A DNA stretch of 64,000 nt from Nymphaea colorata (taxonomy: Eukaryota): contig NC_045138.2 in the NCBI RefSeq assembly GCF_008831285.2, positions 8,060,001 through 8,124,000 of the forward strand, written 5' to 3'. The position numbers and the translations under genes were made by a program. Shown here piece after piece: positions 2,523 to 61,535 of the stretch. The notes below the pieces were generated by a model. It saw only the letters and a program-made list of their open reading frames with translations, ran no database searches and was not told where the DNA came from. Position 1 is the first letter of the stretch; each line of letters starts with the position of its first letter.

Positions 2523-4748
2523 TTTAAGGTATTCAAGTTGACATCCGATGGCCTTCCTCTTTTACCAACTTCTCAACCATGGAATCAAAGTTAACAGAGT
2601 GGGATGAAAGTATGCTCTTATCTGACAATATTAGTGAGTAAAAGTGAAATTTGTGTAGAAGTAATGGTGAGCAACGGTTATCTCCAGGAATTTACTTCAA
2701 ATTTGGCCTTTGACGGCTATATACATTCTTATCGCGATTAGGTTTTCTTGCTTTCGAGTTTATCTTTTCTTGCATTCATATCATTTTACTCTTTACAAAA
2801 CCTTTCAAAAATATTATTTTTAGTGTCTATAGGGATGGGAGATCAACTAAGCAGCTTGTAGTTCGGATTTGCCAAACTTGTAGTAAAAACTTCTAAAAAA
2901 GCTTGTCAAGTCTATTTTTACTTAGTCTATTTAGAGAATACATAATCTGCATAAACACACGCATAGGAAAAGTCAATGTTGTTTGTGCTGGATAGTGGCC
3001 GGATTGTTAAAATTTAAAATTTTATCATTAAATAAACTTTAAAATATACGACCTAAGGAAAATACTAGTACGGTCATCAAATTTATCCTGAATATCTACA
3101 AGATACCAACTAAAATTACTTTTTAAAATCAAATTATAATTGTCATTAACTTTTTTGAAAGATAACTTTGTACCTGACACATTGGTATCTACAAATATAT
3201 TAGTCCACATTACTCCCATGAATATTTAATTAGTTTATATATCTACTCACCATTGAGTTGAAAATAAGGCATTAGGATGTACCTAACCGAAAACATAGTT
3301 AAATAAGTAAGATACTTTCGTAAAGGACCAAAAATACCATTAAGAAAGAAGATTTAAGACATTACATATTCACTTTTCAAATTTCCAAATCGATTCTCTT
3401 GTTTTTAGATTATTGGACTTAGATTGATAAGCCAAAATGGCCGAACCATTGGCCTTTATATCTTTATAAAATTTTATATGCACAATAAAACATTATAATT
3501 TGTTGTCTCGATCATTAACAGGTTTCTTAACCGAGATCAATAATATTCTAACCAGCTTTTGTGAAAAGCACTTGGATATTACTTTTTTTCTTCGATTCCC
3601 AAAATTATCTTTATATTTTTTATTATGTTCAAAATTATCCTTAAATTAAGGGCAAAACTGTCGTCCGTTTTGGTTAAAACGCATAGTTTATACTCTCCAA
3701 CTTAGGAGGATGTGCAGGATGAATTTAAAAGGCTTGAAATATAAAGGAAAAATAAGAAATATGGCAAATAAAGAAGGTTCTATTAAGAAAAGATTCTAAA
3801 ATTAAATTCATGGTAAGGGAGTCTATTATCAACTCGTCTGAAACTTTAATTAGTAGCTACAGACACCTACGTTTGCTTGCTTTTCTGATTCTATATCCTT
3901 GTTGAATCCAAGCAAGATTCTCAATAAATTTTGTACTTTGTACTTAGCACAATTTTCACCATCCCCAATTTTTTGGCTTGTCATTTGCCAATTCGCCAAA
4001 TCTCTATTAATTTCAATAAAACCGGCCTCAATTTGGCAAAAAATGATTATTTATAAATTAAATAAATAAGAAATATAATATAAACAATAAAAACAAGAAA
4101 ACTCTAAACATATTTACAAATAATAAAAAAAACCTAATGACTTGTTGGGAAAACAAGTAGATAGTTGTCTGTCATATACTTGGGAATCATCTAGCCATCT
4201 AGGCCATTGGTCAATAAAACGAAACCATATATATTAAGTTGCAAATATAAAAATTAGACTGTTTTTTCGAAAGTCTAAAATACCGTTCAACAGAAAAGAG
4301 AAAAGAGAAAAGAGAAGAGGAAAATAAATGAATATCCTTAAACAAAACCAATTGTTGCTTTTGAGGGGTATTTCATGTTCTTAAAAAAATAACTTAACTT
4401 ATATATCTCTAACTTAATCTTCTCCTTAATCCTTAAAATTGAAGACAAGAAGCCCGGCATATAAAAGTCTGGTAATTACAAGTTTTTCAACTTGTGGCTC
4501 TTAAAAAAATTCATTTATAGTATATAAAATTTTAAAAAATTATATTTTAACTCCTGTTAAAATTTTGTCGTCCCGTAAAAAAAATTCCTCGCTCTAATCC
4601 TTTTTAGCACCCATTTCTATTTAGTTAACAGTGATCTGCACATGGCCAGGCAACCGACACGAACTCAACCTAGCTGCCTACTGAGCTGCCGGACGCCGAG
4701 CAACGGCATTGGCACGGAAACGGCACGATGGCCATTTCAAAAGCGAAG

Positions 4749-4890
4749 GAACACCATCTCCTGGAAGTCGTTCTTGCTTTTGAAGCCATATCGTTTAATA
4801 TTTAATTTTTGGCAGCATCGTGTCGTAAATGAAGAAACACCATCTCCTGGAAGTGATTCTCGTTTTTTGAAGCCGTATCGTTGAATAATA
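4749..4890. repeat. Two imperfect direct copies (~85 bp period)
   Basis: AACACCATCTCCTGGAAGT...TTTTGAAGCC(A/G)TATCGTT(T/G)AATA occurs at ~4750 and ~4835. Confidence 0.75.
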
Positions 4891-5479
4891 ATTTAATCCT
4901 TCTCAGTGTCGTGTCGTTGGCTGAGGAGCAGACTGAACCGCCCGATTTCGGCCACATTCACGTCGGCAGAAACTCCACAGGTTGCATAAAATTTCGTGTT
5001 TCGTTTTTTTGGAGTTGTGCTGCTGATGAAATAGACAGGTGATTGACAAGGCTGCAGCGGCACGTTGCCCCAATCAATCTGACGCTTTTACGACCTTTCT
5101 CTCGTATCTCTCTCTCTTTCTTTGGCCTTCTTTTTTTCCAGCTAAATACGTGAAGGACACTACAGGAGGAGAAGGTAAAAAGAGGAAGCAACACTGAAAG
5201 CGATAGACCGATCGATGGCGAGGTAACGGATGAGAGAAGCTGGCAAAGGAAAGAGAGAGAGCGGAGAAGAGGAGAATCAGAAAAGATATATGTTAAAAGA
5301 AAATGCCGTTCATGGGGCGGAGAGCCCATGCTTTTCCCCGCTTTGATTCAGAATGCAAGCTCTGGCAGATCTCATAAATTCTACAGGGACGGCGTACTCC
5401 CTTGACTCCCATGCCATTTTGAAACGGAAAGGTTTCTTCCATTAAATCGATGGCGATAGAGAGCTGGACGATTCCCCAT

Positions 5480-5759
5480 ATCAAGCCAAACCAACCAACA
5501 TTCTCAGCTTCTGCTCCAGCCATGCAGAAGCTTTGCTTTCAGGCGGGGGTCCATGGCGGTTCTTTCCAAGAGAAGCTCTCTTTTCTGCGGTTGAGAAGGT
5601 GAAAGGAGCTCCATATGAAGCTCATGGCCGACATAGATGATGATGCCGCTTCGCCGAACTTATCGTTTCTGTGAAGGCTGGCGTATGCTCGCTTTGTTCA
5701 TTCTTGGCTTTGCCCATAAGCATGGCGGCAAGGCACTGTCTGTCCTTATAAGCCTGTGA
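5480..5759 (+). pseudogene. Degraded PLS-class pentatricopeptide-repeat (PPR) gene fragment
   Basis: Across frames and stops, in the right order: IKPNQPTFS (cf. KPNxxTF), VHG, LHMKLMADIDD (cf. LxMYAKCGDIDDA) and LFILGFAHKHGGKALSVL (cf. AMISGFAQHGxGKEALxLF). Confidence 0.45.
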
Positions 5760-6105
5760 GTTTCATTTTCTTTTCTATGCTCCTACGTTGGTAGCTTGAA
5801 ATGATCATGAAGTTTTTTTATATCTTCATCCTTTCTGTTAGAGAAAAAAAAAGCCATCTAGATTGTTATCCTAACCAGTACGCTACTCTTCTTGTCTCAT
5901 ATATACCTAATTTCATCATGCTCTTCCTCTTTTTTCTTTTTCGGTTGTTTTTGAGAAAAAAAATCAAATTTTGTATAACTCGTTCATTTGTTCAAAAGTG
6001 TCCTACCATCTCTTAGATTCTATCCATAACTTGGGTATTTGACAAGTGACTCCTCCGTAACTGGTGTTGCATGAGCATGGAGCCCACATGCAGTGGCTTA
6101 TGAGA

Positions 6106-6127
6106 ATATATATATATATATATATAT
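6106..6127. repeat. (AT)n microsatellite
   Basis: Direct reading. Confidence 0.9.
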
Positions 6128-7250
6128 CTATATATAATCTTGAATATTTCATCTTGAAGACTTTCTAGATATGCATATGGGATTTCAATAATGCACAACA
6201 GACGTGGGTCCCCTTCCAATTTTGGAGACCAGGAGGCGGGCCCGCTCATGCATGAGATCTTAGCAACATGCCATGGTTCTACTGAAGTGTGTAACACATA
6301 AGCTCATGGGGTCAGGCTTGTTAGGGTAAAGGCCAAGTACATCCCTAACATGTGGTCAACAACGCCGTATTCTTTTCTTTGTCTAGCATGCCTTAAATTA
6401 CATATTTAATTGTTAGGGCATCTTCTTAATTATGCAGGGCATTATGATGCCTCAGCCATGTGAAACATTCATTTTGTCCCCTTTTGCCAAAAGGGTATAC
6501 ATTTCAACTTTCTTAAGCACTTGGGAAGGCTTAGTTATTGACTTATTTAATATCCAAGTGGCAAAAAAAAAACCCTAATGATTGCAAAACACCAAACTTA
6601 ATGGCATATATGCCAAGATGTCAAATAATTGGTGATTTGGCTTGTAGAAGCAAATCATGTACCCAGGAAATCAATAAAAGAATTATCAATAAGGAAAACC
6701 CGTTGACAGCCACATATGCCTTGGCCCCATCAAAAGCAGTTCATTTCTTCCATCTTCCAATGGATTTTTGTCTTTGTTTACCATGTTTCCTTTGCTATGC
6801 TACAGTAAACAGTGTGCCTACGTGCTTCTGTGTTCATGCTTTAAAGGGTGCTATACACCACACAATGCACAGTTCACAATGTATGGCCACAGCTTCCCAT
6901 TCAAAATGCTAAGTATCTGAACTGTTTCCGTCCTTGCTGCAATATATATGCTCATGTTTAAGTACTGTTGTCACTTGTTCTCTTCCTTTTCGAAAAAAAG
7001 AGTTGGCTCCATCTGCTCGAGCGTTACTTAAACATTCATAGTCACTTGTCATTCAACAAACGTTCTATTAAAAACTACGGAAAGCAATATTTCACGAACA
7101 CGCAATTGCTGAAGAACGAAAAGTATAAAAAAGAGATGCCGTGTTCGAAATAGAGATATATGCTTGCCATGGCCAGTATCAGTAAGCCGCACAAGACCAA
7201 AACTTATAAGAGAGTTACATGTCTACGAGAAAAATTACTTCCATGCATGT

Positions 7251-7252
<2 letters not shown>

Positions 7253-7289
<37 letters not shown>
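7253..7289. repeat. (AT)18 microsatellite downstream of the YABBY stop codon
   Basis: Direct reading. Confidence 0.95.
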
Positions 7290-7291
<2 letters not shown>

Positions 7292-7555
7292 CTAAGTTCC
7301 ACAGAGCCCATTTTGTCTCTTAAACGGGTGGCTGAACCGCTAGTGCATGAAACAAATAAATCTAAACCATATCTTGGCAAATTGACATGAAAACAACTGT
7401 ATTTATAATATTTAGGGAACCATGACCACAGTGTGATCAATCGAAAGTCAAATATAAGCATGTAGATTGGAGGACTAGTTATTGTCTCTGGAATCCTCAA
7501 ATCATAGTTCAAACATGCCAAAACGAAGTAGTTATCCATATATTTACTGGCACAA

Positions 7556-7672
7556 TTATTGAAATGTTTGACGCACCGCTGTGCCTCCACCTAGAAAGCT
7601 GGTATCGTCAAATTTCGCTTGCTTGTTGCCTTCCAGAGATAATCCAAACTGAATGTGAGGAAAATGAGCCCA
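7556..7672 (-). CDS. YAB2: YABBY exon 6 ([38 protein letters not shown])
   Basis: Acceptor ATGCAG|TGGGCT; TAA at 7558-7556. Confidence 0.93.
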   Translation of the reverse strand, partial: WAHFPHIQFGLSLEGNKQAKFDDTSFLGGGTAVRQTFQ

Positions 7673-10600
7673 CTGCATAACAAAAACTCCATAAGATAAG
7701 TGCGTAACAAGAACTCCATAAGATAGTAGGAAAGCAAACGGATTACATTATGTAATACTTATTTTGTTCATACGGTGAGAAATAAATGAGTTTGGCTAGA
7801 GGAATGTTAACAAGAAATGGAGTTTAAGTCTCCATAGCCGAAATCGTTTTCAGTAGGCAATGACATATTGGTTAGAGGGGAAACAAGCATTCCCCATTTG
7901 GGCCAGCAAACCATGAGATGTTTTCTTCTTTTTGACACTTTTTTGAGAGAAAAAAGGCCTATTATCCCCATGACCTCATGCTAGTTCAAGGGTATTGTAC
8001 ACCATGCATGCACCTTCTATGTTGTATGAGGTTACCTAAGGAAATCCACAGATTATATAATTTGTGGATGCTAAGTTAATAAATAAAGCAGATGGACTAA
8101 TAAAATAAAAAAAATATCTCTCAAATTTCTTGGGATTGCAATGCAATTTGATGGGCCCCTATTTTATTACTCAATGTTCCCACTAAGTTAGATAGAGATT
8201 GAAAAGGTTTGAGAAGGAGTGATCGACAGCCAGCTTTTGATCGACCGAAATAAAATCCCAACCTAAAAGTTAATTATCCAAGTCGCATATAGTGTTGCAA
8301 ACTCATATTCCTTCGATGCATGTGCATTTGTTTCCTTATGTCACAAACGAAATGTTACAAATTCATGGTCCCTTGTCGATAGTTAGATATTCAATAATCG
8401 ACTAAATAAATCCTACATTAGTCAATCACACATTTCTTTGATTACTAAGTAGTTTTCATTCTCTAACTTAATTGTTCGAGTTCCTAGTCCTATTTGAATA
8501 TGAGTTTTAATTTCCACTAGTTGCAGTGGAGAATGCCTCTACTTTTCACTATAACTTTATTGTAATGGTTCTTTATGTTCAACCTTTGAAGTCTAAATAT
8601 GCTTAAATGACTCTATAGTTGTCCAGTAAAAGCATTCTCCTCCTGGGTAGAAGAATGTACTTAGGAGCTTCAATTGAAGAATGAACGGACATAGTAGTTC
8701 TACAACAAGGCATGAGCTGCCTAGCGCAGGTGGCAGAAAGCTGCCCAGATGAGAATCAACGCACCTTCTTTTCCCAAGGGAAAAAGAAAAGAAAAGGAAA
8801 GGATAAATGTTCTATTTCTGGGTGGCAGAAAGCTGCCCAGATGAGAATCAACGCACCTTCTTTCCCCATGCCTGTTGGGTCCTAGTCAATGTCAGAGCCT
8901 AGGATTGGTAAAGGTGCACCTTTACCTTGGTGCCATTCCTCACCCTCTATGGCCCAAGAAAATAGCAGTCACGAGAATCAAAATAGAGATGCCAGGTTAA
9001 TCATTGCCCTCCTCCTTAGTAGCTATGCTATACATCTCATGTTCTCTTTATTAGGGTTAAAGTAGGGTTGTGAAAATCAGTACTTGAATTGAACTGTTAG
9101 TGATTGATTTGGTAAATCGGTCAATTTAGTAAACTGATTTATTGATTAAAATAACTTTTAAAAATCAATATATAAACATTAATTTAAAAATAAGAAGACT
9201 AAACATTAATTTAAAAATAAGAAGACTCTTTAAAGTTTCGAAAAATAGTTAAAAGTTAACACAGAACTTTTCCATTGGCCACTGAGTTCAATTGACTTGT
9301 CATTGATTCAATTTGAATTGGTTATTTCAAGCCTTTGAGTTAATTTTATTGACACAAAACGCAAAGAAAGGTAGGCACCTGAATGAAGGTGTGAGCATAC
9401 ATCTTGTGCGCGTACGAATTCCACTTAATTAATTTTTCTTTTCTTATTGACTTCCTAACTGTTTTTTATATCATATTCTTTTCAATAGGACAACAATTGA
9501 TGTGACTCGGACCAACTCAATAGAACTATTGTAAGAAATCATGCAGAAACTGGAAGAGGGAAAGCAAACTATCAAAATAAATGTCCTAAACCACTATACT
9601 ACTATGTAATTTGTTATTGATGTGAAATTGCCATCTTAAGTTCTCTGTATCATTATTTATTTTATTTAATATCTTATAATTATTTATAGAAATTTCCTCT
9701 TTCTTAATGATTCTTAATACAGTTGCGCCGTTACTGGTTGATAGTTTAGATTAGACACTTCTTTTTCCCATCCTCCTTGACCATGTAACTTTTAATGTCA
9801 TAGCCTTCCCTCTAGGATATATCATTTTGATCGTATGCTGTTTTTCAGACAGCAAGCTTCTTTAATTTTATTAGCTTAAGGACTCACCTGGCTATACTTT
9901 TAGTACCAAGGTTTTGTAAAGCAAGACGACCCTTTACCTTGCAGGTGCACTTGAAATTTCTCCAAAATGCAACCTTAGTCACCTTGGACTAGTAATAATA
10001 GGATCTTCTCCCCTCTTCTGTTCTGTAAGTTCAAGCAATCTGCAACTCCAATGTATGCTGCTAATAGTATTATGACAATATTTGGCATTAAAATATTAAA
10101 TTCCTAGAGTTTTTTTTTTTAAATTTCATTATTTTAATCCATGATGTTGTTATATGGAAATGGACATTTCAAGGTTTATGAGGAAATATTTACATGAGAA
10201 AGGAATGATCACATTACTGATCCATCAGGCACAAACCTAATTTCCTTTGAAGAATTTATTTAACTTATTAACATATTATTAATAGTTGTGAACCTTTTCG
10301 ATTTGCCCACTGTTATGAAACAGCCACAACTGAAGTCATAAGCAAAAGTTTCCACATATCTCCATGGTTGTTTGAACCTCAAGGTCATACCATTTCATGA
10401 AGTTAAGTGTCTTCTTAGCAAGATTTACATCTTTGTACCAACTCTTGAAAGTTATTCATCAAAACTTATTAACTAAAACTTTTATTTCTAAATCTATGTT
10501 TTCAAAGTTAAGCAAACTTTAAATGTTGTGTTCATATTCTTAAAATGGCAAGATCAGACTATTTCTATGAGAAGATGTTAATTTTCCAGCTTGTTCATTT

Positions 10601-30780: not shown

Positions 30781-32004
30781 TAAACTAAAGAACAACTTCT
30801 TCTGTTGCAATGTATGGAGACTTTTTTTTATCTTCTCCATGAACTTGACGTGAGGCAAGAAGGATCGCTTAGGTCAAAATTATATGGATGTTTAAGTCTA
30901 GAGTGGAGGGTATAACCTTGCGTTGTGGGTTGCCCTTTGCCTCGTTGCCTTGTCGGATATTAAAGCAGCCTCGGACTGATCAACCATGTGCCGATGAAGG
31001 CCGGAAAGGAAACAGTGAGAAGGTAGTGATGGCCACTATTCTTCTCCTGTCATCTCTCTCTCACCGCCTCTTCTTCACATCAAGGCATATCTCTCTCTCT
31101 TTCTCTCTTCTGATAAGGACGACACAGTAATGCCAGCCTACATATCTAGATGGCCTGCAAGTTGAGTTTGAATACATGCACAATATAATATACATAATAC
31201 CATGCTTTATCGCCTATATATATATCCGTCAAAGCCATTGTCAACCATGGAAAAAGCTTGCCAATATCTCAAAATGAAACTCAAGCAATTATCAGGAGAA
31301 GGAAACTGAATCCTCAACCTATATAATTTGATAACATACATGAAACTCTTTCGAGTCGCTCTCTCCATGATGGCGATGCCAGCTTAATTTCCTTTGTTGC
31401 TTCTCACATCACACAATCAGTTCTGCGGGAAAAAGGCGAAGGTGGGAGTGGCTAATTAGCCACTTAGAGTCACTGTTCTGACCGACCGAGCCATGGCTGC
31501 CCTCTCCAGTCAATTGCCTGGTCCCGCACACCTGCCCGACCCCCTCCATTGATAAGGTTCCATCACCCCCAGCTGCCCCTCTGTAACAAAAAGACAAGGT
31601 CGTTCAACAGTACTTAGACGGCGACCTTGGGGTGAAGGAAGGAACTAGTCTGGGACCAATGAGTTGGTTCAGGCGGTCGTTCAGACCCATGCATTTATTG
31701 GCGTAAGATCGGAATCCGATCTGTTTGGGCTGGCATTTTTTAATGGGCCAAAACGACACATGAAAATTACTGTTTTAACTAAAGCATTCGTCCAAATATA
31801 TAGAGAAAGAGAGAGAGAGAGAGAGAAAGAGAAAGAGAGCCGATAAAATGGGAATATATAACAAAATTTGGGGACAAGAGGTCCCTTAAATACAAAAACA
31901 ATCCGCAAAGAACAAAATTACGCAAAAAACACAAGCAGGAGGAACAAATAAACAATACAATGCACAGAAAAATAGGAGAGAAGAGGAAAGACGAAACGAC
32001 ACAA

Positions 32005-35000
32005 TCACCCAACCGCAGTCAGGCGGCGGCGCTTTAACCGAATGGCGAACTGGATATCCCCTTGCACAAGACGAGCCACAGAATCTGGTGAAGAAAATGT
32101 GCCCCTGAAGACCCTGTTGTTGCGCTCCACCCAAATGCGCCACCAAGCTGAAATGAGCCACGGCCTCCAGACATGACCCCAGGAAGCAGTCAGGTGGGGG
32201 GGAAGGACTTACTAATAAGGGAAGGCCAAGTAGAAGCAAGGACACTAGAGCAAAAAGGGCAAGAAGTAAAAAGGTGGACCCGAGACTCAGTCGCAACAAG
32301 ACATAGGGGACACTGGTTAGCCAAACTGATGCCAAGGCGCTGTAGGTGATCAAAAGTGTTGATATGGCCAGTCAGAAGAAGCCAAACAAAAGCAATGGCT
32401 CGAGGAGAAGGGCCAGGAGACCAAAGAGACCGGGAGGAGTGACGCGACAGAGGGACCAAAGGAGGCCAGGTAGCAAGAAGAAAAAGTGAACTCACGGGTA
32501 GGTGAAAGGGGTCAGGATGGGGAAGTGAACGATGAGAGGTCAGCAAGGCGGAGAAAAAGAAGAAGGACAGAAAGCATGTCGGACCAAAAGTGAGAAGGGG
32601 AGATGTGAGATATAGAACTATGCCAGACGGTAGGGGAAGGCAGGTCGAATTTTGAACTAATGAATTGGGTGATGGGAGAATGTTCAGTAGCTAACCGCCA
32701 CCACCAAGAACACAGGGAAGACTCGCAAGCCCGACTAAGGTTGGTAACCCCAGCACCCCCAAGAAGACGCGGAAAGGCAACCACATCCCAATGCGCAAGG
32801 TGATCTGAAGGTCGATCACCATCCCAAACAAACTTACGAATAAGCTTATCAAACTTACGCAAGACAGCCACAGGAGGCCGAAAGACAGACAAAGCATGGA
32901 GAGGAACTGACGCAAGGCAGTGCTTAGCCAAAGTAATCCGACCTGGAAGAGAAAGCAGCTTTCCCTGCCAACACTGAAGGCGATCCGTAAGCTTCTGCTC
33001 CACCCCATTCCAAAAAGAAGGAGCAGGAGGCGACAACGTAATCTGAAGCCCCAGATAATCCATGGGCAGGCTAGTAGCCTTACACCCAAAGCAAGCTTCC
33101 GCGAGAAGTACCGTGGCCGGATCCGCGTGAATGAAGGAAAGGTGACACTTGGCGGAATTGATAGAAAGACCTGAGATGAGCTCAAAGACCCGAAGGATGA
33201 GCCACGTTCTCACAACCTGCTGGCGAGAAGCACTGCCGAACAGGAGAAAATCATCAGCATACTGAAGGGTGGAGAAGGACGGTAAGTGGGGGAGCGAATG
33301 GGGTGTGAGGAAGCCAACGACCGTTGCGTGATGGAAAAGCGCAGAAAAGCTCTCAGCAACAAAGTTGAAAAGCAAGGGCGATAACGGGCAACCTTGACGG
33401 AGGCCACGCTCGAGACAGAAGAAATCACCACACTTTCCATTGAAGGAAACCGCAAGCTGGGCCCCAGTGACAAGCGACATGATCCACTGCCTAAACGAAT
33501 GACCAAATGCAAGACGGGTGAGGAGGTCAGAAAGGAACTCTCAACTAACCGAGTCAAAAGCCTTAGAGATATCCAACTTCAAGATGAATGAAGGTAGCCG
33601 TAGACAGTAAAGGGAGTGAACAACCTCATTGGCTAGGACAACCGCATCCTGCAGACGCCGACCCTTGACGAAAGCAACCTGGAAGAGGTTAATGACTGAA
33701 GGCATGACAGGCGCAAGCCGCATAGAGAGCAACTTAGCAATAATCTTGTACGGCGTGCCAAGGATGGAGATCGGGCGAAAGTGGGTGACGTCCATAGGGT
33801 TAGGACGCTTAGGCACCAGGACGCAGGTAGCTTGATTGAATTCCTTGAGGAAAACAGAATTGGAGGCGAACTCATCACAAAACGCAAACACATCCGCGCT
33901 ACAAACCTCCCAAAAAGTACAAAAAAATTCGACTGGGAAACCATCAATGCCGGGCGCCTTACCCGAGCCAAGGGCCCAGACCGCGTTCTTGATCTCTTGG
34001 TGTTGGAAGGACCGCTCAAGAGCGATCGCACAAGAGACAGAGAGAGAGGAGAGGTGAAAATCCGGCAGCGTGGCACGGAAGCGAAGAGGTTTAGAGTAGA
34101 AATCCTTGAAATGAGCGCTCAGGGCCGGGAGGATGTCATCACCAAGAAAAATCCTGCCTCCGATACCCATGGACTGGAGCAACGTCTGACGGCGCCTCTG
34201 AGAGGCGGCCAAGTGGAAGAATCTAGAGTTCTGGTCCCCATGCGCGAGCCAACCCAGCCTAGAGCGTTGCTGCCAATGGATAGACTCCCTAATCCGCCAC
34301 TCCAGGGCAAGACACTGCAGACAAAGGAGACAAGAAGACTGATCCGCAGAAATATTATCAGAGGCCTGAAGGGACATGATCTCCTCATCCCAAACGACCA
34401 CATCCAAAAATTTGCTGCTCCAGAAAATGCGCTTCCAGGCGAGCGCCTCCCTCCTGATGGAGTGCAACTTCCGTGAGAGCCTGAAAGCAGCCCACCTACC
34501 ATTGACTGCACGAGCCCACCAATTAGGGACGGTAGCTACAAAGGATTCATCACGGAGCCACCAAATCTCAAAACGAAACCTGGCGTGCCCGATACCAGCC
34601 CTACCCCGAAGAAGGGAAAAGAGCAGCGGAGCATGATCGGACAAGTGCCTCGGGCCAAGAACCAAGGAGGATGAAGGAAAAGCAGAGAACAACTCAGGCG
34701 AGAGGAAGATACGGTCCAACCTACGATGGATCGGAGGGTTCCTATTATTAGACCAAGTAAACGTACCGTTAGTCGAAGGCACGTCAAAAAGACCAAACTC
34801 ATCAACGAAAGATCGAAAAGCAGACATAGACGGGCCAGAAGTGACAGGGGAGGAAGAGTCAGCAGGGCTAAGCAAACAGTTGAAGTCTCCGACCAGAAAC
34901 CAAGGGGAAGCTGCAAGCTGGCGAACCTGTTGCAGCTCAGCCCACAGTTGCCCACGCAAAGCCCCAACGCAAGGGCCATAAACCGCAGTAACCAAGACCG

Positions 35001-35298
35001 GACCATTAGGCCAAAATCCACTGAGAGAAGCAGAGATAGAGTACCTTTCGACATGCACAACAGCCCCCGTAAGGGGTGGAGACCAAGCCAGCAGGATGCC
35101 GCCCGCTGCTCCACAAGCTGGAAGGAACCCAAAGGACGGTTTGCGCAACAAAGTACGAACACAAGCATGAGAGATGACAGACATCTTGGTCTCAACCACA
35201 AAAAGCACCGAAGGCCCATGCTGACGGATCCAAGAAGAGAGATACCTACGCCGATAACGGGCACTGAAGCCCCGCACATTCCAACATGCAACCCTCAT
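32005..35298 (-). pseudogene. LINE ORF2 (endonuclease-reverse transcriptase), disrupted
   Basis: WNVRG, ETK, GDFN, RLDR and SDH (APE); KAPGIDG, FRPIS, KLDISKAFD, GLRQGCPLSP and QYADD (RT); CPLC...HLFTSC (zf-RVT); WWRIWVERNNRVF near the C-terminus. In-frame TGA at 33543-33541 (expected TGG) and two frameshifts near 32530 and 32200. No RNase H seen. Confidence 0.93.
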
Positions 35299-36760
35299 GG
35301 GGAAACCACGTGAAGCGACGAATGTCTGGCCGCCCTGGCGGCACCAGGAGGGAGGACGGAGGCTGCAGAAGCCCCAATCCTACGCAACTCCCACCGCAAC
35401 CTGGCCAGGCTGGAGCGGGAGACCGGTGCCACAGCGGCAGCAAAAGAGGAACACAACAAATCAAATTGCTCAGGCGAAAGAGAGACCTTAAGAGCGTCAA
35501 GCGCATCCGGGAGGGAGATGCCCAACTCAACATCCAACAAGGGGGCAACAGGTGGCAACCTATCGGGCAGGGAGTGACGACCCACAGGACTCGTGGTGGG
35601 GCCAGACAACTGAACAGGGGAGGACGATGGGGTAGAGGTGAACTCAGACTCAGACCGTAGGGCAGGGGAAAAAGAGCCAACATAAGGGATGCGGGAGAGG
35701 CCAGGGCTAACCGGTGGGAGAGGCAGGTAGGTGGGGTTTAGAGGCGAGCAGCGACTGAGTCTAGGGAGCAGAAAATGCAAGGAAGGCTAGTAAGAACTAA
35801 AGCTACTGTCAAAATAAACAGAAAAAACCCAAGGCAGATAGGCAAAGGAGGAGGTCCTGGGTGTAAGGGGGGGCATAGAGGGCCAGTAACCAAGGTAAAG
35901 AGCAACGTACAGGCAACGGAGGGAGAACGACTCACTGGGGGTGCCGAGACGCCAGAGGCCAAGACAACGCAGGCCGCAGTCAGACGAGAGCGAGCAACAA
36001 CAGCAGCCTCAAGGGGAAGACCCTCCGACGACGGGCGGGCAACCGAAAGAGACGGTGCGGACGACCGGACGTCGCCAAGGTCAGACTGAGCAGCAACCAG
36101 CAATGGGTCGGGGCAGCCCGAGGTGGACTCGCGTGGAGCCCCAGCTCGCAAAGCAGGAAAAGGAAAGGGCGAGCAGGGTACCTCAGAGGAGCATGGCAGA
36201 GAGCAGGCTAGACTCCTTCGCTGAGGAGAGGCTGGCGCCCGCGGTGAGGGAAGCAAGGGCGGAAGCTGAGAAGGCGGCAGCTCTACCACCGAAGAGCACT
36301 GGTGCGGCAGATCACCTGGCCTGAAAACCTGCGGAACCTGTACCGAAAAAGGAGGACCCCGCGTTCCAGGACAAGTAGGCCCAGGCCAAGGAAGTCTGAT
36401 AGAGCCAAAGAACATAGAGCTCTCGCCCAAAGAAGGTGACCGCTGAACAACTTGCGGAGGAACCTGGACCAAGAAGGAAGCAGTGACCGCTGCAAAACCA
36501 TGCCGTCGAGCAAAAAGGCGACGATCATTCTGACGAGCAGGAAAGCGACATCGAGAACACGTGACAGCCCGGCGGCCGTTCAAGGAAGCACACCTCTGAC
36601 ACCACCACTGGCCCCATCTGACGCGGATAGAAGCAACAGACCGGAGAAGGTGACGAAGCCTGGAAGCACGCCGAGAAGAGGGGACACACCACGGTGAGGG
36701 GGCTGGCCTACCAACGGAGACCACCTTGGGGAGCCTCGGCCGCAAGGAACAGTCGCCCAT
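35295..36760 (-). CDS. LINE ORF1, Pro/Ser/Arg-rich with RanBP2-type zinc finger; split into two frames (36760-35738 and 35786-35295)
   Basis: WWCQRCASLNGRRAVTCSRC fits W-x-C-x2-C-x3-N-x6-C-x2-C. The C-terminal ARLRWELRRIG resembles the RELxxL end motif of plant L1 ORF1s. The stop overlaps the ORF2 ATG (ATGA). Confidence 0.7.
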
Positions 36761-37599
36761 CTGCAGAAGGAGAAAACAACAACGCGCTGGCGAGAGGAAG
36801 GCCTGGAGGAGCCCGCGAGCATCTTTCAGCTGAAGTGTGCCGGCGAAAATGCAATTGAAGATAGTAGACTGCCAACTGAAAGACAATGCCTGCGATTAAC
36901 GAACCCCCTCAGGCGAGCAAAGAAAACCGATCGTCGCACGACAAAGCAAGCGATTAAGAGGGAAGGGGTTACCCGGCCTGATACCACAAAGACTAGGACC
37001 CCCAACCCAAACCCCCGAGGGCGGCCGCAAAGGCGGGGGAGGAGGAAGGGCTGCCATGACACCCCCCACAGTGCAAGAGTAAAGAAAAAAGGAACCTGTT
37101 TTCACACGCAATTCAACAAACAGTTACAGTGCACCTCGCTCAAGGTGTAGGGAGAGACGTCCCACGGCTTCAGCGCTCTCCAAGCGACAGAGAGGGCAGG
37201 GGGAAGAGCTGCATTGCTCGGGGAAAGGGGGGGACAATGCCGTGCGGCCCCAGACGGACGGCGAAGACGTGCGAGCCGGCGATGGGGGCAGACAGAGAGA
37301 AGGGCGGGCGGTGGGGCCGACGGGAGATAGAGAGGGCGAGTGGGGCCGGACGAGCGGGTGGTGGGGGCAGACGGAGAGACGGGTGGGCGGTGTGGTCGAC
37401 GGGAGAAAGAGAGAGCGAGTGGGGAGTAGGGGGAAGAGTTGGACGAGCAGGAGGACGGTCGGCGAGGACAGGCGGGCGAGAGAGGAGAGTGAGTGGTCGG
37501 GCGGGCGAGAGATGAGGGCGGTCGGGCGGCGAGGACGGGCGGTCGGTAGGCGAGGACGGGACGGGCGGCTTGGACGGGCGGGACGGGCGGGGCGGTCGG

Positions 37600-37639
<40 letters not shown>

Positions 37640-37698
37640 GAGAGAGAGAGAGAGAGACTTACATGCTCCGAGAGAAAGAGAAAGAGAGAGAGAGGAGA

Positions 37699-37966
37699 GA
37701 GAGAGTAAATTGAATGGTGACTCTGACTATCCCAAGCCAATTAGCTCACCTTTGAAGGTTACTTGATTTATCATCATAGACTATTGAGAAAAAAACAAGA
37801 AAACTATTGAGAAAAAAACAAGAAAAAATGATGGGTAATTTTGTTATATAGATTTCACAACTTTTCTTTTTTGTTTTTTATTTCAACCATCCATCACATT
37901 AGATCCGATGGTCTTCCTAACTGATTTGGGTGACTCTCAATAGTCATAATCATCATTCACTCTCTC
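37699..37966. mobile_element. Microsatellite-associated MITE next to the LINE 5' end
   Basis: Inverted ends GAGAGAGTAAATTGAATGGTGACTCTGACTAT / ATAGTCATAATCATCATTCACTCTCTC; internal tandem ACTATTGAGAAAAAAACAAGAAAA x2. Confidence 0.6.
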
Positions 37967-56106: not shown

Positions 56107-56578
56107 TGTAAAAAGATATCTAAAAGAAGAGTATTTTTCTCACTTGAATAAATTACAACGAGTTGATACAAATATATATACAGAAAAGATCCACAATTCG
56201 TGGAATGAATAAAGGAAAGAAAAACTGCCGTATCTCCCTTTAGGTGATTTCAGCAATTTCAGCATTATCAACATCTTTAATGATTTTCAGCATATTCCTA
56301 AAATCACTTCTTGCTGAGACATTCTTTTTATGTCACCATTCTTAACGTCTCCAGCAATTTCCTTATTTTCCAGCTCGTGCTTATCTTTGTTGTCATCATC
56401 CTTAATGTCTTGAGCAATCTCGTTCTTAAATTCTCATCTTTCTGGGATGTTTTTATCTTTAACGTTTCCAGCTAATTTATTCTTATCAAGAAACGTTATT
56501 GCTGAGGTGCTCTGCCCTTTAACGTTTTTCTCAACGTCTTCAACTGATTTTATGGCTCTCACAGATTTACTCTTATCA
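56107..56578 (-). repeat. Copia 3' LTR (472 bp)
   Basis: About 22 substitutions and 2 small indels versus the 5' LTR by manual count (~95% identity). Confidence 0.97.
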
Positions 56579-59500
56579 TGCCCCCTCAAACTGGGTGGTG
56601 GGTGAACAATGCCCAGTTTGCATCTGAGATATTCAGTGGCAGATCGAAATAATGCTTTTGTAAAGATATGAGCAACTTGCTGAGAGGAAGGAACATATTG
56701 AGTAATTAAGGTCCCTAACACCACCTTCTCTCGTAAGAAATGATAATCGATGGCAATATGTTTCATTCTGGAGTGAAACACTGGCTTAATGCTAACTTGT
56801 AAGGCAGACATATTGTCAAAGTATAGCTGTGGAGGATCCGTTATACGGATGCCAATATCTTTGAGGATGAAGGAAAGCCATGTTAACTCAACTGCTACAG
56901 ATGCCATCGATCTATATTCTACTTCAGTTGCAGATCGAGTGACCGTTGGTTGCTTTTTAGCTGTCCACGAAATAGCATTCGTGTCGATGAATGTGCAAAA
57001 GCCAGTTGTGGATCATCGTGTCTCTTGATGCCCAGCCCAATCTGAATCAGAGTAAGCATGGAATCGAAAAACTGACTGGGGTGAAAGTAGACAACCAAGT
57101 TCTATGGTCCCATGAATATATCGAAGAATTCTTTTGACAAGCATAAACTGACTAACGAAATTCACACTATACGTGACATCAGGACATGTGAACGTGAGAT
57201 ACTGAAGGCCACCAACTAGGCTGCGATAGAGTGTAGGGTTAACAAATGGTGGATCTTCAGGAGGTGCCCAAAAATTCTGAACTAGAGGAGTAACAGCTGG
57301 TTTACAAGTTGTTAGTGCAGCATGTTCCAAGAGACTGTATGCATCTCTTTTGATTGAGAAAGAGACCTTGAGATGTTTGGAGAGCCTCAATACCAAGGAA
57401 GTGATGTAAACTTCTTAAGTCATTCATCAAAAACTCATGGTTAAGTTCAGTAATAAATTCTTGAATGAAATGAGTATTGTTGCCGGTCAAGATTATGTCA
57501 TCAACATATAATAACAAAATGATGGTTCCCTTGCTATGATGGCAGATATATAGAGACGAATCTAAGATGCTGCTAAAAAAACCTTTGGAAAGTAGAAAGA
57601 ATCTGAATTTATCATACCATGCCCTTGGAGATTGCCAAAGTTCATAGAGAGCTTTGTGTAGTCAGCATACATGATCTGGTTTGGTGGGGTCTTCAAAACC
57701 TTGTAGCTGTTCGACATAAACAGTCTCTTGTAACTCACCATGTAGAAATGCATTTTTGACATCGAGTTGCCTAATATCCCAATTTCGAGATAAAGCGATA
57801 GTCAACACAATGCGAATGGTGGCTGGTTTGATGACTGGTGAGAAAGTTTCCATAGAAAGAATCTGAATTTATCATACCATGCCCTTGGAGATTGCCAAAG
57901 TTCATAGAGAGCTTTGTGTAGTCAGCATACATGATCTGGTTTGGTGGGGTCTTCAAAACCTTGTGGCTGTTCGACATAAACAGTCTCTTGTAACTCACCA
58001 TGTAGAAATACATTTTTGACATCGAGTTGCCTAATATCCCAATTTCGAGATAAAGCGATAGTCAACACAATGCGAATGGTGGCTGGTTTGATGACTGGTG
58101 AGAAAGTTTCCATAAAGTCAATCCCTGGAATTTGGTTGAACCCATGAGCCACTAGATGATCTTTTAGTTGATCTAACGTTCCATCGCTTTTCAGCTTGGT
58201 CTTGAACACCCATCTGGTGGAGATGACATTCATATATGCAGTTTGGGGTGTTAGAGTCCATGTTTTGCACAAATTCAATGCTTCTATTTCTTCCTCCATG
58301 GCTTTTACCCATCCTGAATGTTTGAATGCCTCTTTGACTGTTTTAGGTTCCAAAGGAACTGGGAGAGCAAGGAAGTACTTTGGATTTGGCTTGATTATGC
58401 CATCCTTTGCCCTAGTGATCATGGAATGTGAGTTGATAGGAGTTGGTAACTACACATCGGATTGAGAATGAGGCATGAAATCCATGAGAGATGGCTCGAT
58501 GACCTGTTGAGAGCTGCTAGCATCTGTAAAATGAGAAGTGTTAGTGTCTGTAGCAAATGAGGAATTGCTGCTTGAAGAGGAGTCACGGTTGTCGTTGTGG
58601 CAACGGGTTCTAATGGAGCCATTATCAATTTCATCAATACAGCCAGACTTAGAAATTTCCTCAACTGACTGGTTATCGCCAATCCACTCGTTGTAGGTGT
58701 CGCCTTATTGAGAATAAGGCATTGCTGTAAATAAATTACCAGGTTGTTGAAAAGGAAATGTATTTTCATCAAAAACTACATTTCTGGATATAAAAATCTG
58801 ACTTGTTGGTGGATATAAACATTTATATTCTTTATGCGTTGAGTTATACCCTATAAAAACATAGGTTAAAGATCTAGGCTCCAACTTATTCTTGGAATAA
58901 TCTCGAAGGTATGGAAAACATCAGCTTCCAAAAACTCTCATGCAGCCATAATCTGGGTTCTTCTTGAATACAAGCTGAAATGGACTTTTCATTTTAAGCA
59001 TAGGTGTGGGCAGCCGATTGATTAACTATACCGTTGTAGAGAATGCTTCAACCCAAAATTTCACTGGCTTGCTGGCATGAAACATCATAGCAAGTTCGAG
59101 TTCAACTATAGTTTGATGTCTGCGTTTGACCATGCCATTCTAAGGAGGAGTTTTAGGACACACTTTTAAGTGTTGGATTCCATATTCTCACAAGTATGAA
59201 GCAAGCATATTACTATTAAATTCGCCGCCTTCATCGGTTTGAAGAATTTTGACTCTCTTCCCAAATTGATTTTCCACAAACTTGTGAAAAATTTTAAAAA
59301 TATCACAAAATTTGGACTTGAAGTGCATTGGATAAAACCAAATAAAATGAGTGGATTCATCAACGAATACAGCATAATACTTATATTGTTGAGATCCGAT
59401 GATTGGGGAAAGTCCTCATAGATCACAATGCACATGACCAAGGAATTCATCACAATGAATTCATCACAATGTTCTTTAATAGAAAGATATGGAAGATAAC

Positions 59501-61037
59501 ATGACTTAGCTAATTGACAACTGGAACATAAAATTCTGCTTCGAGATGGGCCAAGAATTCTAATGGCCTTTTTATTGACCAAAAACTCTACTACCTGCTG
59601 GTTGATGTGACCAAGGCAATGATGCCAAACTTCCTTATTTGCTCCACGAAATCTAACTAAGAAAAAAGCCTTGTGATCTCCTTAATTTTTTGACGTTGCT
59701 CTTACATTCTCCAGCATATAAAGTCCATCATGTTCGGTTCCAGATGCCACAATCTGTTGATTCCTCTTGTCCTTTACAAGAAAACCATTAGCAGAAAATT
59801 TAAAAATATATGACACGTCTGCTGTTAGTTGACTCACTGAAATTAAATTCTTTTTAATTTCTGGAACCGCTAAAACATTCTTGAGCCAAATAGAATTATG
59901 CCCATAGTTAATAATGGTATTGCTCACATGCATAATGTCAAGTTTCTGACCATTGCCTACCATTATTTTTTCTGATCCATAATATTTAGTGGAGACATTG
60001 AGATTACCTGCTTCAGATGGAACGTGGGCAGATGCTCCAGTATCTGGGAACCATTGTTGGTCCTGACCATCTGCTATCTTCATTGCAGCTAGTGCTTGAG
60101 GTACTTGTTTGGGCTGGAACATTTGATTAAAACGATGCCAGTAGTTAAGTGCAGAATGGTTTCTCTTTCTACAAATTTGGCACACGACTCCCTTTTGAGA
60201 GGAATCAAATTGATTATGATTCTCTCTTTTGTCGTTGTTAAAAGGAATACCTTGGCTGGCTTGGCGAAACTCTCGTTCCTTAGAATTGAACATCTGATTT
60301 TTATGTCCCCTATACCTTGGATTTTGAACACGCTGGTTCATAAAAGCCACCTGCGTGCCTAAAACATCTCCATACATACTTCTTACCGTCTCATGACTTT
60401 TAAGCAAGGCAATAACTTCCAAGTATGGTGGAGTTGGAGGACACATATAAGTCGTTCTAAAAGACTCATATTCTGGTTTGAGACCAATCAATAACCAAAA
60501 CACTTTAGATTGATCTGCAACTAGTTTTCCAATGATAGCAAGTTCATCACATATAATTTTGAAATTTTTGGTATATTCAGCAATACTTAGATTGCCTTTC
60601 GGATTCATCTGAAGCTTTTGCATAAGGAGCATTTCTCGCTCCTGTGACTCATAAGCAAATCTTCGATTTAAAGTATCACATACATGTTTAGAGGTTTTCA
60701 GGCCAACTACTAGCCCTAATATTTCTTCTGATAGGGTTCCTATGATCCATCCACGCAGCAACCGATCTGATCTTTGTCATGCGCTAAAGTCCAGATTCAC
60801 ACTTTGTTCAACTGCAGCAATATTCCCTGCGTTCTGACTGTTGCTAGGGAGATATCTATCAGCCATGGGCCATCGATAAAACCTGACATATCCTGACTTT
60901 CGATTAATCCTAGCACCTGCGTCTGCCATAAGAGAAAATTGGACTGGGTCAATTTGATGGAAACAAAATTGGCAACGTTCAGGTTGAAAGGATATGGGTA
61001 TTTGAGTGAAGCAGTCTACGAATTTTTGTGAGGCCAT
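56434..61037 (-). pseudogene. Copia gag-pol polyprotein, disrupted
   Basis: KLTQSNFLLW (gag N-terminus), CQICRKRNHSALNY (decayed zinc knuckle), WFPDTGASAH (protease), [64 protein letters not shown]. Multiple stops and frameshifts. Confidence 0.95.
57593..58112. repeat. 260-bp tandem duplication inside the copia RT
   Basis: Units 57593-57852 and 57853-58112 differ at 2 positions by manual comparison. Confidence 0.95.
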
Positions 61038-61060
61038 GGAATCGCAGCACTCTGATACCA

Positions 61061-61535
61061 TGTAAAAAGATATCTAAAAGAGAAGAGTATTTTTCTCACT
61101 TGAATAAATTACAATGAGTTCATACAAATATATATATAGAAAAGATCCACAATTCGTGGAATGAATAAAGGAAAGAAAAACTGCCGTGTCTCCCTTTAGG
61201 TGATTTCAGCAATTTCAGCATTCTCAACATCTTTAATGATTTTCAGCACGTTCCTAAAATCACTTCTTGCTGAGACGTTCTTTTTAATGTCACCATTCTT
61301 AACGTCTCCAGAAATTTCCTTATTTTCCCGCTCGTGCTTATCTTTGTTGTCATCATCCTTAACGTCTTCAGCAATCTCGTTCCTAAATTCTCGTCATGCT
61401 GAGACGTTTTTATCTTTAACGTTTCCAGCTAATTTATTCTTATCAAGAAATGTTATTGCTGAGGTGCTCTGCTCTTTAACGTTTTTCTCAACGTCTTCAG
61501 CTTATTTTATGGCTCTCACAGATTTACTCTTATCA
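61061..61535 (-). repeat. Copia 5' LTR (475 bp)
   Basis: Adjacent to the PBS; matches 56107-56578. Confidence 0.97.

Follow-up and report, generated by a model that had tools for sequence, protein, structure and literature searches.

A decayed, tail-less L1-type element with a putative RanBP2-type zinc finger in a GA/CT tract of the water lily Nymphaea colorata

Kibi elements of zebrafish and pufferfish are (TC)n-microsatellite-specific retrotransposons without long terminal repeats (non-LTR) and with an apurinic/apyrimidinic endonuclease (APE), and the microsatellite-targeting APE-type elements discussed together with them are all from animals in the examples described there (PMC3812793). 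For flowering plants, Table 1 of PMC3472496 lists 233 L1 families, of which 224 end in (A)n, none in other repeats and nine in no repeat at all; the parts of the same survey devoted to stringent 3' ends report that L1s of green algae often carry non-A 3' repeats and in some cases lack A-tails, and that the specific 3' end of maize LINE1-1_ZM is recognized, is shared with short interspersed nuclear elements (SINEs) and forms a stem backed by compensatory changes. The first open reading frame (ORF1) of plant L1s typically codes for a DUF4283, zf-CCHC or RRM domain, as summarized in the ORF1 sections of PMC5203782. Here we describe a long interspersed nuclear element (LINE) of the L1 type from the water lily Nymphaea colorata, situated in a window of 64,000 nt (NC_045138.2, positions 8,060,001-8,124,000 of the forward strand, assembly GCF_008831285.2; all coordinates below are window positions). 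This decayed copy shows three traits that are unusual for a plant L1, namely the lack of an A-tail, a likely preference of its family for GA/CT tracts, and a RanBP2-type finger in ORF1.

The LINE is flanked by an exact 19-mer, GAGAGAAAGAGAAAGAGAG on the + strand, at 31821-31839 and 37670-37688, and an imperfect (GA)n tract runs on outside both copies (31802-31820 and 37689-37705). The empty site thus comprised some 55 bp of GA repeats, and the 19-mer represents a true target-site duplication, confirming the proposal of a first-pass annotation of this DNA that the element had inserted into a GA/CT tract with a long duplication; the interval 31821..37688 given in that annotation extends from the outer edge of one duplication copy to that of the other. 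Of the host sequence in the window, 0.8% consists of pure GA/CT tracts of at least 20 nt. Within its surroundings the LINE stands out by its GC content (0.52-0.57 vs 0.27-0.44) and by a strong strand asymmetry, the sense strand consisting of 12.4% A, 31.3% C, 24.1% G and 32.1% T, with A at only 6% of the third codon positions of ORF2. The sense strand of mammalian L1 is A-rich, i.e., the opposite of the composition observed here. Due to the scarcity of A on the sense strand (31840-37669), all three frames are nearly free of stop codons, and pyrimidine tracts are numerous. Neither blastn nor tblastn revealed further copies of the LINE within the window.

The start codon of ORF2 is located at 35298, and the frame and its shifted continuations matched the Pfam families Exo_endo_phos (1.2e-18), RVT_1 (1.5e-10 and 2.2e-14, on two pieces) and, C-terminally and in a shifted frame, zf-RVT (PF13966; 1.9e-12). 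Among solved structures, human L1 ORF2p was the best match (1e-16), and the L1 endonuclease was found at 5e-5. The order of APE endonuclease, reverse transcriptase (RT) and zf-RVT corresponds to that of plant L1 ORF2, and the element is classed as an L1-type LINE on the basis of this layout. Comparison of ORF2 with the longer database proteins identified eight predictions from Nymphaea thermarum with 72-88% identity, whereas identity to all proteins from outside Nymphaea was at most 34% among the matches listed; the three-domain layout recurs in the best of these latter, some of which bear the name LINE-1 ORF2. These values indicate an isolated lineage, which is probably specific to Nymphaea. 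Kibi belongs to the Tx1 group of L1; the designation “Transposon TX1” of N. thermarum proteins was not accepted as a placement of the present lineage in that group, being an annotation label rather than the result of a tree. Three metagenome loci retrieved with the C-terminus of ORF2 (37-60% identity over 25-46 residues) were likewise dismissed as unrelated LINEs. One N. thermarum protein of 1508 residues, named R-linalool synthase (P0007), joins the terpene-synthase domains PF01397 and PF03936 to ORF1 and ORF2 of the family and is probably a chimeric gene prediction.

Several lesions separate this copy from its relatives. A TGA at 33543-33541 is private, since base 33541 is C in all five contigs of sequence run X15, restoring TGG; a second private TGA at 32514-32512 corresponds to W in related N. 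thermarum models. Two single nucleotides have been lost near 32431 and 32435, where G is present in two contigs each of runs X15 and X16, and a deletion near 32200 affects a stretch that is retained in related proteins and contigs. Judged by these defects, together with the stops and frameshifts in ORF1 described below, the copy is dead; the first-pass annotation was right in calling it full-length as to its extent, but not if the term is meant to imply an intact element.

The sense strand of the LINE ends ...TTTTATCGG directly at the duplication. In this one copy, on which the poly(A) test was performed, the terminus ...CCCATTTTATCGG (...TTATCGG) adjoins the duplicated target, the longest run of A in the whole LINE is four, and AATAAA or ATTAAA is missing from the last 400 nt, in agreement with the earlier statement that poly(A) is absent. 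A short CT-type tail would look identical to the GA/CT target and thus would be indistinguishable from it here. Summed contig depth at 31835-31888 amounted to 658-1719 in run X15 and 3704-8027 in run X16; in both runs it was zero to the left of 31835, near zero at 31916-31996, and resumed at about 32024, and both had 31885 joined to 32027. The terminal ~65 nt thus behave as a sharply bounded, widely shared module beside a variable stretch, which suits the recognition of a specific 3' end. The summed depth of this region (31835-31915) also exceeded that of most of the adjacent 3' part of ORF2 in the two runs, an excess which could be due to many very short copies or to a non-autonomous partner sharing the module.

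Information on the insertion sites of other family members came from the loose ends of reads and contigs. Among the listed loose ends, which were sorted by eye, seven represent break points of shorter copies, the other listed ones resembling sequence variants or adapters; outside the listed set there were another 31 and 34 loose ends, and five per run at the microsatellite were left out. At four of the seven break points the sequence continues GA-rich, i.e., at 31900 (X15), at about 31883-31897 (X16), at 32157 (X24, seven reads) and at 32171 (X15 and X16). The flank in X16 has, by eye, the 15-mer GAAAGAGAAAGAGAG in common with the duplication of the present copy. Given the background of 0.8%, three or four GA-rich break points out of seven are far above chance expectation, and we regard a preference of the family for GA/CT tracts as likely. 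The contigs of X15 and X16 with the break point at 32171 show a 15-nt GA-rich stretch, after which the element starts again from about 32145; this arrangement amounts to a 27-nt duplication (32145-32171) around the GA stretch.

ORF1 codes for a putative zinc finger of the RanBP2/NZF type. The RanBP2 pattern W-x-C-x(2,4)-C-x(3)-N-x(6)-C-x(2)-C has a single match in the three sense frames (36607-36548), and P0004 and P0005, the two related models in this frame, both retain the finger. When 41 residues were compared with all solved structures by phmmer, RanBP2 ranked first (1.4e-5), single fingers of RNF31, Nup153, TAB2 and ZNF265 followed at 0.0085-0.03, and the remaining matches were mostly fingers of RNF31, Nup153, TAB2, ZNF265/ZRANB2, RBM5/10, TRABID and NPL4. 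The four-Cys spacing, the Trp preceding the first Cys and the invariant Asn are as in known RanBP2/NZF fingers; the difference lies in the location of the finger, which here sits in ORF1 of a retrotransposon. Its second Cys is followed by AS in place of the LV of RanBP2 or the TF of RNF31, so that the finger cannot be placed in a known ligand class; moreover, the subclass of RanBP2 fingers that binds single-stranded RNA has an aromatic residue after the Asn, a position occupied by Gly in this finger. A single-sequence structure model of the region was all helix, with a predicted local distance difference test score (pLDDT) of 54, too low for use. DUF4283, zf-CCHC and RRM were not found in ORF1 by Pfam, which detected no family at all in the 340 residues encoded from ATG 36760 at E values up to 0.1, nor in the C-terminal part at E values up to 10. 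Thus, the pattern, the solved-structure search and the conservation in two models uphold the earlier suggestion of a RanBP2-type finger, in an ORF1 that, by its sequence, lacks the usual plant-L1 domains. Neither the main text nor the two searchable supplements of PMC5203782, a broad L1 survey, contain the term RanBP, and nothing relevant pairing RanBP2 with LINE or non-LTR elements was found in the open-access literature.

An exhaustive search of 1.84 billion representative proteins with the same 340-residue frame yielded twelve matches: seven named ones, all of them N. thermarum predictions, three unnamed ones, and the two weakest, which match the Pro/Ser-rich part only. Conservation peaks in the C-terminal 60 residues (35540-35358), and a search of the ESM Atlas with this part gave no usable match. 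Taking the related protein models as proof of coding was rejected, because at 12% A all frames are nearly open.

ORF1 of the present copy is interrupted. The frame from ATG 36760 reaches 35738, and a second frame extends from 35786 to TGA 35297-35295, which overlaps the ATG of ORF2 (35298-35296) as ATGA. A GT...AG stretch (35935-35787) would join the two frames in this copy, and the first-pass annotation accordingly spoke of an intron-like break; break and GT...AG are indeed present. The loss of register, however, can be traced to a single nucleotide missing between 35880 and 35879, since an extra base (G) in one X15 contig restores it. Five N. thermarum models (P0001, P0006, P0008, P0009 and P0012) read through the region without a break and have W, M, L, L and L, respectively, at the codon of TAG 35789-35787, which means that the acceptor AG (35788-35787) is absent from all five. 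One of them, P0008, is only 53% identical in ORF1 and still keeps the frame through the region, with a three-residue in-frame insertion further downstream. Based on the extra base in the contig, the five models lacking the AG and the frame kept in P0008, the break in ORF1 is best read as decay by private mutations, not as an intron, and conservation of the splice signals, as far as the ORF1 acceptor is concerned, is contradicted by the five covering models. The five read-through models are half of the ten related ones reaching the region; the other five leave it, by eye, at five different places, as would be expected from gene prediction on decayed copies. Scoring by the codon usage of ORF2 favored frame 0 at 37045-36325 and frame 2 at 35740-35425 and gave no positive frame at 35965-35785; little weight was attached to these scores, as non-coding GC-rich repeats yield similar pseudo-signals. 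The segment 35965-35785 may be a fast-evolving Pro/Ser-rich linker.

Directly upstream of ATG 36760 the first-pass annotation had noted a splice acceptor, and the motif is present. Fourteen acceptor-like motifs were counted on the sense strand of the LINE, eight of them in its 5' 2400 nt, compared to 6.4 +/- 2.5 in shuffled sequences, and a post hoc test gave such a motif directly before an ATG in 19 of the 500 shuffled sequences. Translation in models P0003 and P0004 starts at an ATG equivalent to 37057 and passes through the motif in frame; in the present copy, reading from 37057 is interrupted by TAA 36898-36896, and both ATG 36760 and ATG 37057 are candidates for the start of ORF1. Being compatible with chance and translated in two relatives, the motif does not speak for a function in splicing. 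Further upstream, the GC-rich tandem repeats of the leader (37272-37599, - strand) consist of units of 79 nt (1.9 copies), 21 nt and 13 nt, and thereby resemble the monomer-type promoters of mouse L1. Beyond about 37210 the leader is not shared by the contigs of run X15. One reading of the 13 nt and the 54-nt (CT)n at its outer end would be read-in transcription from a progenitor behind a CT tract.

RNA runs X22, X23 and X24, all from one organism and each read to about 6%, contributed 28, 78 and 58 reads, respectively, all within 31700-33535. These reads contained no splice joint; 33536-37800, and thus the 5' part, had no coverage. Seven X24 reads each showed adapter-like letters at 32119 and 32154, as loose ends in opposite orientations, which suggests 5' ends of RNA inside the 3' part of a family copy. 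The features of the locus are compiled in Table 1.

Table 1. Coordinates of the LINE, its target site and its component features in the window
Feature	Position	Strand	Remarks
LINE proper	31840-37669	-	5830 nt; GC 52-57% vs 27-44% around; sense strand 12.4% A
Host (GA)n tract, 3' side of the element	31802-31839	.	includes one copy of the target-site duplication as its last 19 nt (31821-31839)
Second 19-bp duplication copy and remaining host (GA)n tract	37670-37705	.	duplication is 37670-37688
3'-terminal module	31840-31905	-	without A-tail; 5-bp hairpin 31871-31885; over-represented in contigs of two runs
ORF2, broken	32008-35298	-	endonuclease about 35283-34633; RT about 33813-33040; zf-RVT about 32435-32247
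ORF1, broken	35295-37057	-	ATG 36760, or 37057 as in two related models; TAA 36898-36896; TAG 35789-35787
Best-conserved part of ORF1 (C-terminal, LLDVELG to GASAAS)	35358-35540	-	no known family matched
Intron-like GT...AG stretch	35787-35935	-	149 nt; read as coding in five related models
Putative RanBP2/NZF-type zinc finger in ORF1	36548-36607	-	pattern match and solved-structure search; no Pfam match
Acceptor-like pyrimidine tract and CAG	36761-36782	-	directly before ATG 36760; most likely ordinary coding or leader sequence
5' leader	37058-37669	-	13 nt with GTAAGT (37662-37657), 54-nt (CT)n (37656-37603), GC-rich tandem repeats 37272-37599

Apart from the LINE, the window contains a remnant of a Ty1/copia LTR retrotransposon at 56437-61073 (- strand), which is split over several frames and matched RVT_2 (1.8e-22 and 1.1e-28), gag_pre-integrs, Retrotran_gag_2 and Pol_BBD of Pfam. 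The host DNA flanking the insertion contains, at a distance of about 90 nt (37780-37826), a 23-nt sequence perfectly duplicated in tandem.

With moderate confidence, we explain the locus as a full-length, dead and tail-less L1-type LINE in a GA/CT tract, the family of which integrates preferentially into such tracts by way of a specific 3' module; the same moderate confidence covers, as part of this explanation, the view that the splice-like signals arose as by-products of the low A content (12%) of the sense strand. Target-primed reverse transcription is predicted to start directly on the conserved 3'-terminal RNA module. The endonuclease would nick the purine strand of the tract, in the present case after the G at 31839, and the freed 3'-OH would serve as primer for cDNA synthesis that starts, without an A-tail, at the terminal ...UAUCGG, corresponding to a “stringent” element with a specific 3' end; a second nick 19 bp away would then give rise to the duplication. 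The finger is conceivable as a nucleic-acid-binding module of the ORF1 protein that replaces the CCHC knuckle or the RRM, and the 5'-terminal 13 nt and (CT)27 may stem from read-in from an upstream CT tract of the progenitor itself. That the present copy represents a water-lily L1 lineage specialized on (GA)n.(CT)n, perhaps interrupted by GAAAGA, which has become free of poly(A) by means of the 65-nt module, uses read-in from CT tracts and has exchanged the RNA-binding modules of ORF1 for the finger, is an extension of this explanation that we consider unlikely.

A number of observations weigh against the preferred explanation. The sequence is not GA-rich at three of the seven break points, i.e., at 32071 (X22), 32086 (X23) and 31876 (X16), so that the targeting of CT tracts by the family, as proposed earlier, receives support from the four GA-rich break points against a background of 0.8%, but not from the whole set. 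The break point at 32171 is ambiguous, since element sequence resumes after it, and the listed loose ends include no 3' junction of another copy; GA-rich letters beside short copies could also derive from the element's own (CT)n leader via internal deletion. Runs X15 and X16 are of unrecorded type, either RNA or DNA. The last 121 nt do not fold more stably than shuffled sequences (z = -0.15), forming just a 5-bp hairpin. As to ORF1, every related sequence is a predicted protein from one species, N. thermarum, open frames are weak evidence for coding on a strand so poor in A, and zf-RanBP of Pfam does not match ORF1 even at E values up to 10.

Some of these points would suit a conventional plant L1 without target specificity, whose insertion into a GA tract was fortuitous, with an A-tail that was very short or has been lost and with GA flanks elsewhere that are due to coincidence or assembly noise. 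Besides the three break points that are not GA-rich, only one complete insertion has been observed, and the preponderance of (A)n termini in Table 1 of PMC3472496 (224 of 233 flowering-plant families) makes a tailed element the prior expectation. We nevertheless consider a chance landing doubtful, because ...ATCGG adjoins the duplication without a single A in between, on a strand with 12% A and no A run longer than four, because the 3' module has a sharp boundary at one and the same end in two runs, and because three or four GA-rich break points out of seven contrast with the 0.8% background. Alternatively, the element itself might have produced the association with GA/CT, its 5' (CT)n run having been moved next to 3' fragments by deletion or rearrangement, and the microsatellite having then grown around insertions. 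The 54 nt of (CT)n inside the 5' end of this copy would provide the material, the X16 flank ends ...GAGAGAC, by eye the same ending as that of the leader run on the + strand, and at 32171 a GA stretch lies between two element pieces. This is very unlikely in view of the tract extending outside both duplication copies, which means that it pre-dates the insertion; besides, at 31900 (X15) the flank continues after GAGAGAGAG with unrelated sequence and not with the 13-nt 5' end, and the leader beyond about 37210 is not common to the X15 contigs.

The model put forward in the first-pass annotation, i.e., insertion into CT-rich leaders of host genes, splicing from a host donor to the ORF1 acceptor, an intron in ORF1, and a finger recognizing the element's own unspliced RNA, can draw on the acceptor motif lying exactly before the ATG, as in only 19 of 500 shuffles, on GTAAGT 8 nt from the 5' end of the LINE and GTGAGT at the ORF1 break, on the lack of a coding-like frame at 35965-35785 by ORF2 codon usage, and on N. 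thermarum model P0005, which was predicted with a junction immediately upstream of the corresponding ATG. Against it stand the missing intron AG in five of five models and the frame kept in the diverged P0008, the frame break explained by a 1-nt loss that one contig does not share, and the in-frame passage of P0003 and P0004 through the acceptor motif. Moreover, the sequence from the donor to the acceptors is retained completely, so the template of this copy was unspliced. Host genes were not detected next to the insertion, and the finger has AS at the positions of LV in RanBP2 and TF in RNF31. With the intron AG absent and the acceptor compatible with chance, a splice-dependent strategy is not supported, and we judge the model as a whole highly improbable.

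If the preferred explanation is correct, a GA/CT preference would be new for L1s of flowering plants; the extended reading, which we consider unlikely, would make the lineage their first microsatellite-specific L1, with a new type of ORF1. Neither Nymphaea LINEs associated with microsatellites nor microsatellite-specific non-LTR elements of plants were found to be described in the open-access literature. The preferred explanation would mean that a poly(A)-independent strategy preferring GA/CT arose again in a plant L1 lineage, and would provide a natural endonuclease with a preference for purine tracts. It would also bear on repeat annotation and on GA/CT marker loci in water lilies, and a RanBP2-type finger would extend the classification of ORF1 by one domain type.

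Among known systems, Kibi resembles the present element in being a LINE with an APE-type endonuclease inside TC/GA microsatellites, whose targeting is thought, in the discussion of PMC3812793, to reside in sequence-specific nicking. Kibi is an animal element, whereas the present one has a water lily as host, a plant-type zf-RVT in ORF2 and a specificity that is partly shown. With flowering-plant L1s, as outlined in the surveyed parts of PMC3472496 and PMC5203782, it shares the two ORFs, the combination of APE, RT and zf-RVT in ORF2 and the target-site duplication; it differs from them by the lack of a tail, by an ORF1 with a putative RanBP2-type finger and none of the usual domains, by its A-poor strand, and by an ORF2 identity to proteins from outside Nymphaea of at most 34% among the matches listed. 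The likeness to LINE1-1_ZM and to the stringent L1s of green algae, in the respective sections of PMC3472496, consists in the specific 3' end, which for the present element is predicted, and, for some algal L1s, in the absence of an A-tail. For the maize element this specificity is backed by a SINE partner and a covarying stem, while in the water-lily element it is indicated by the over-representation of the last ~65 nt.

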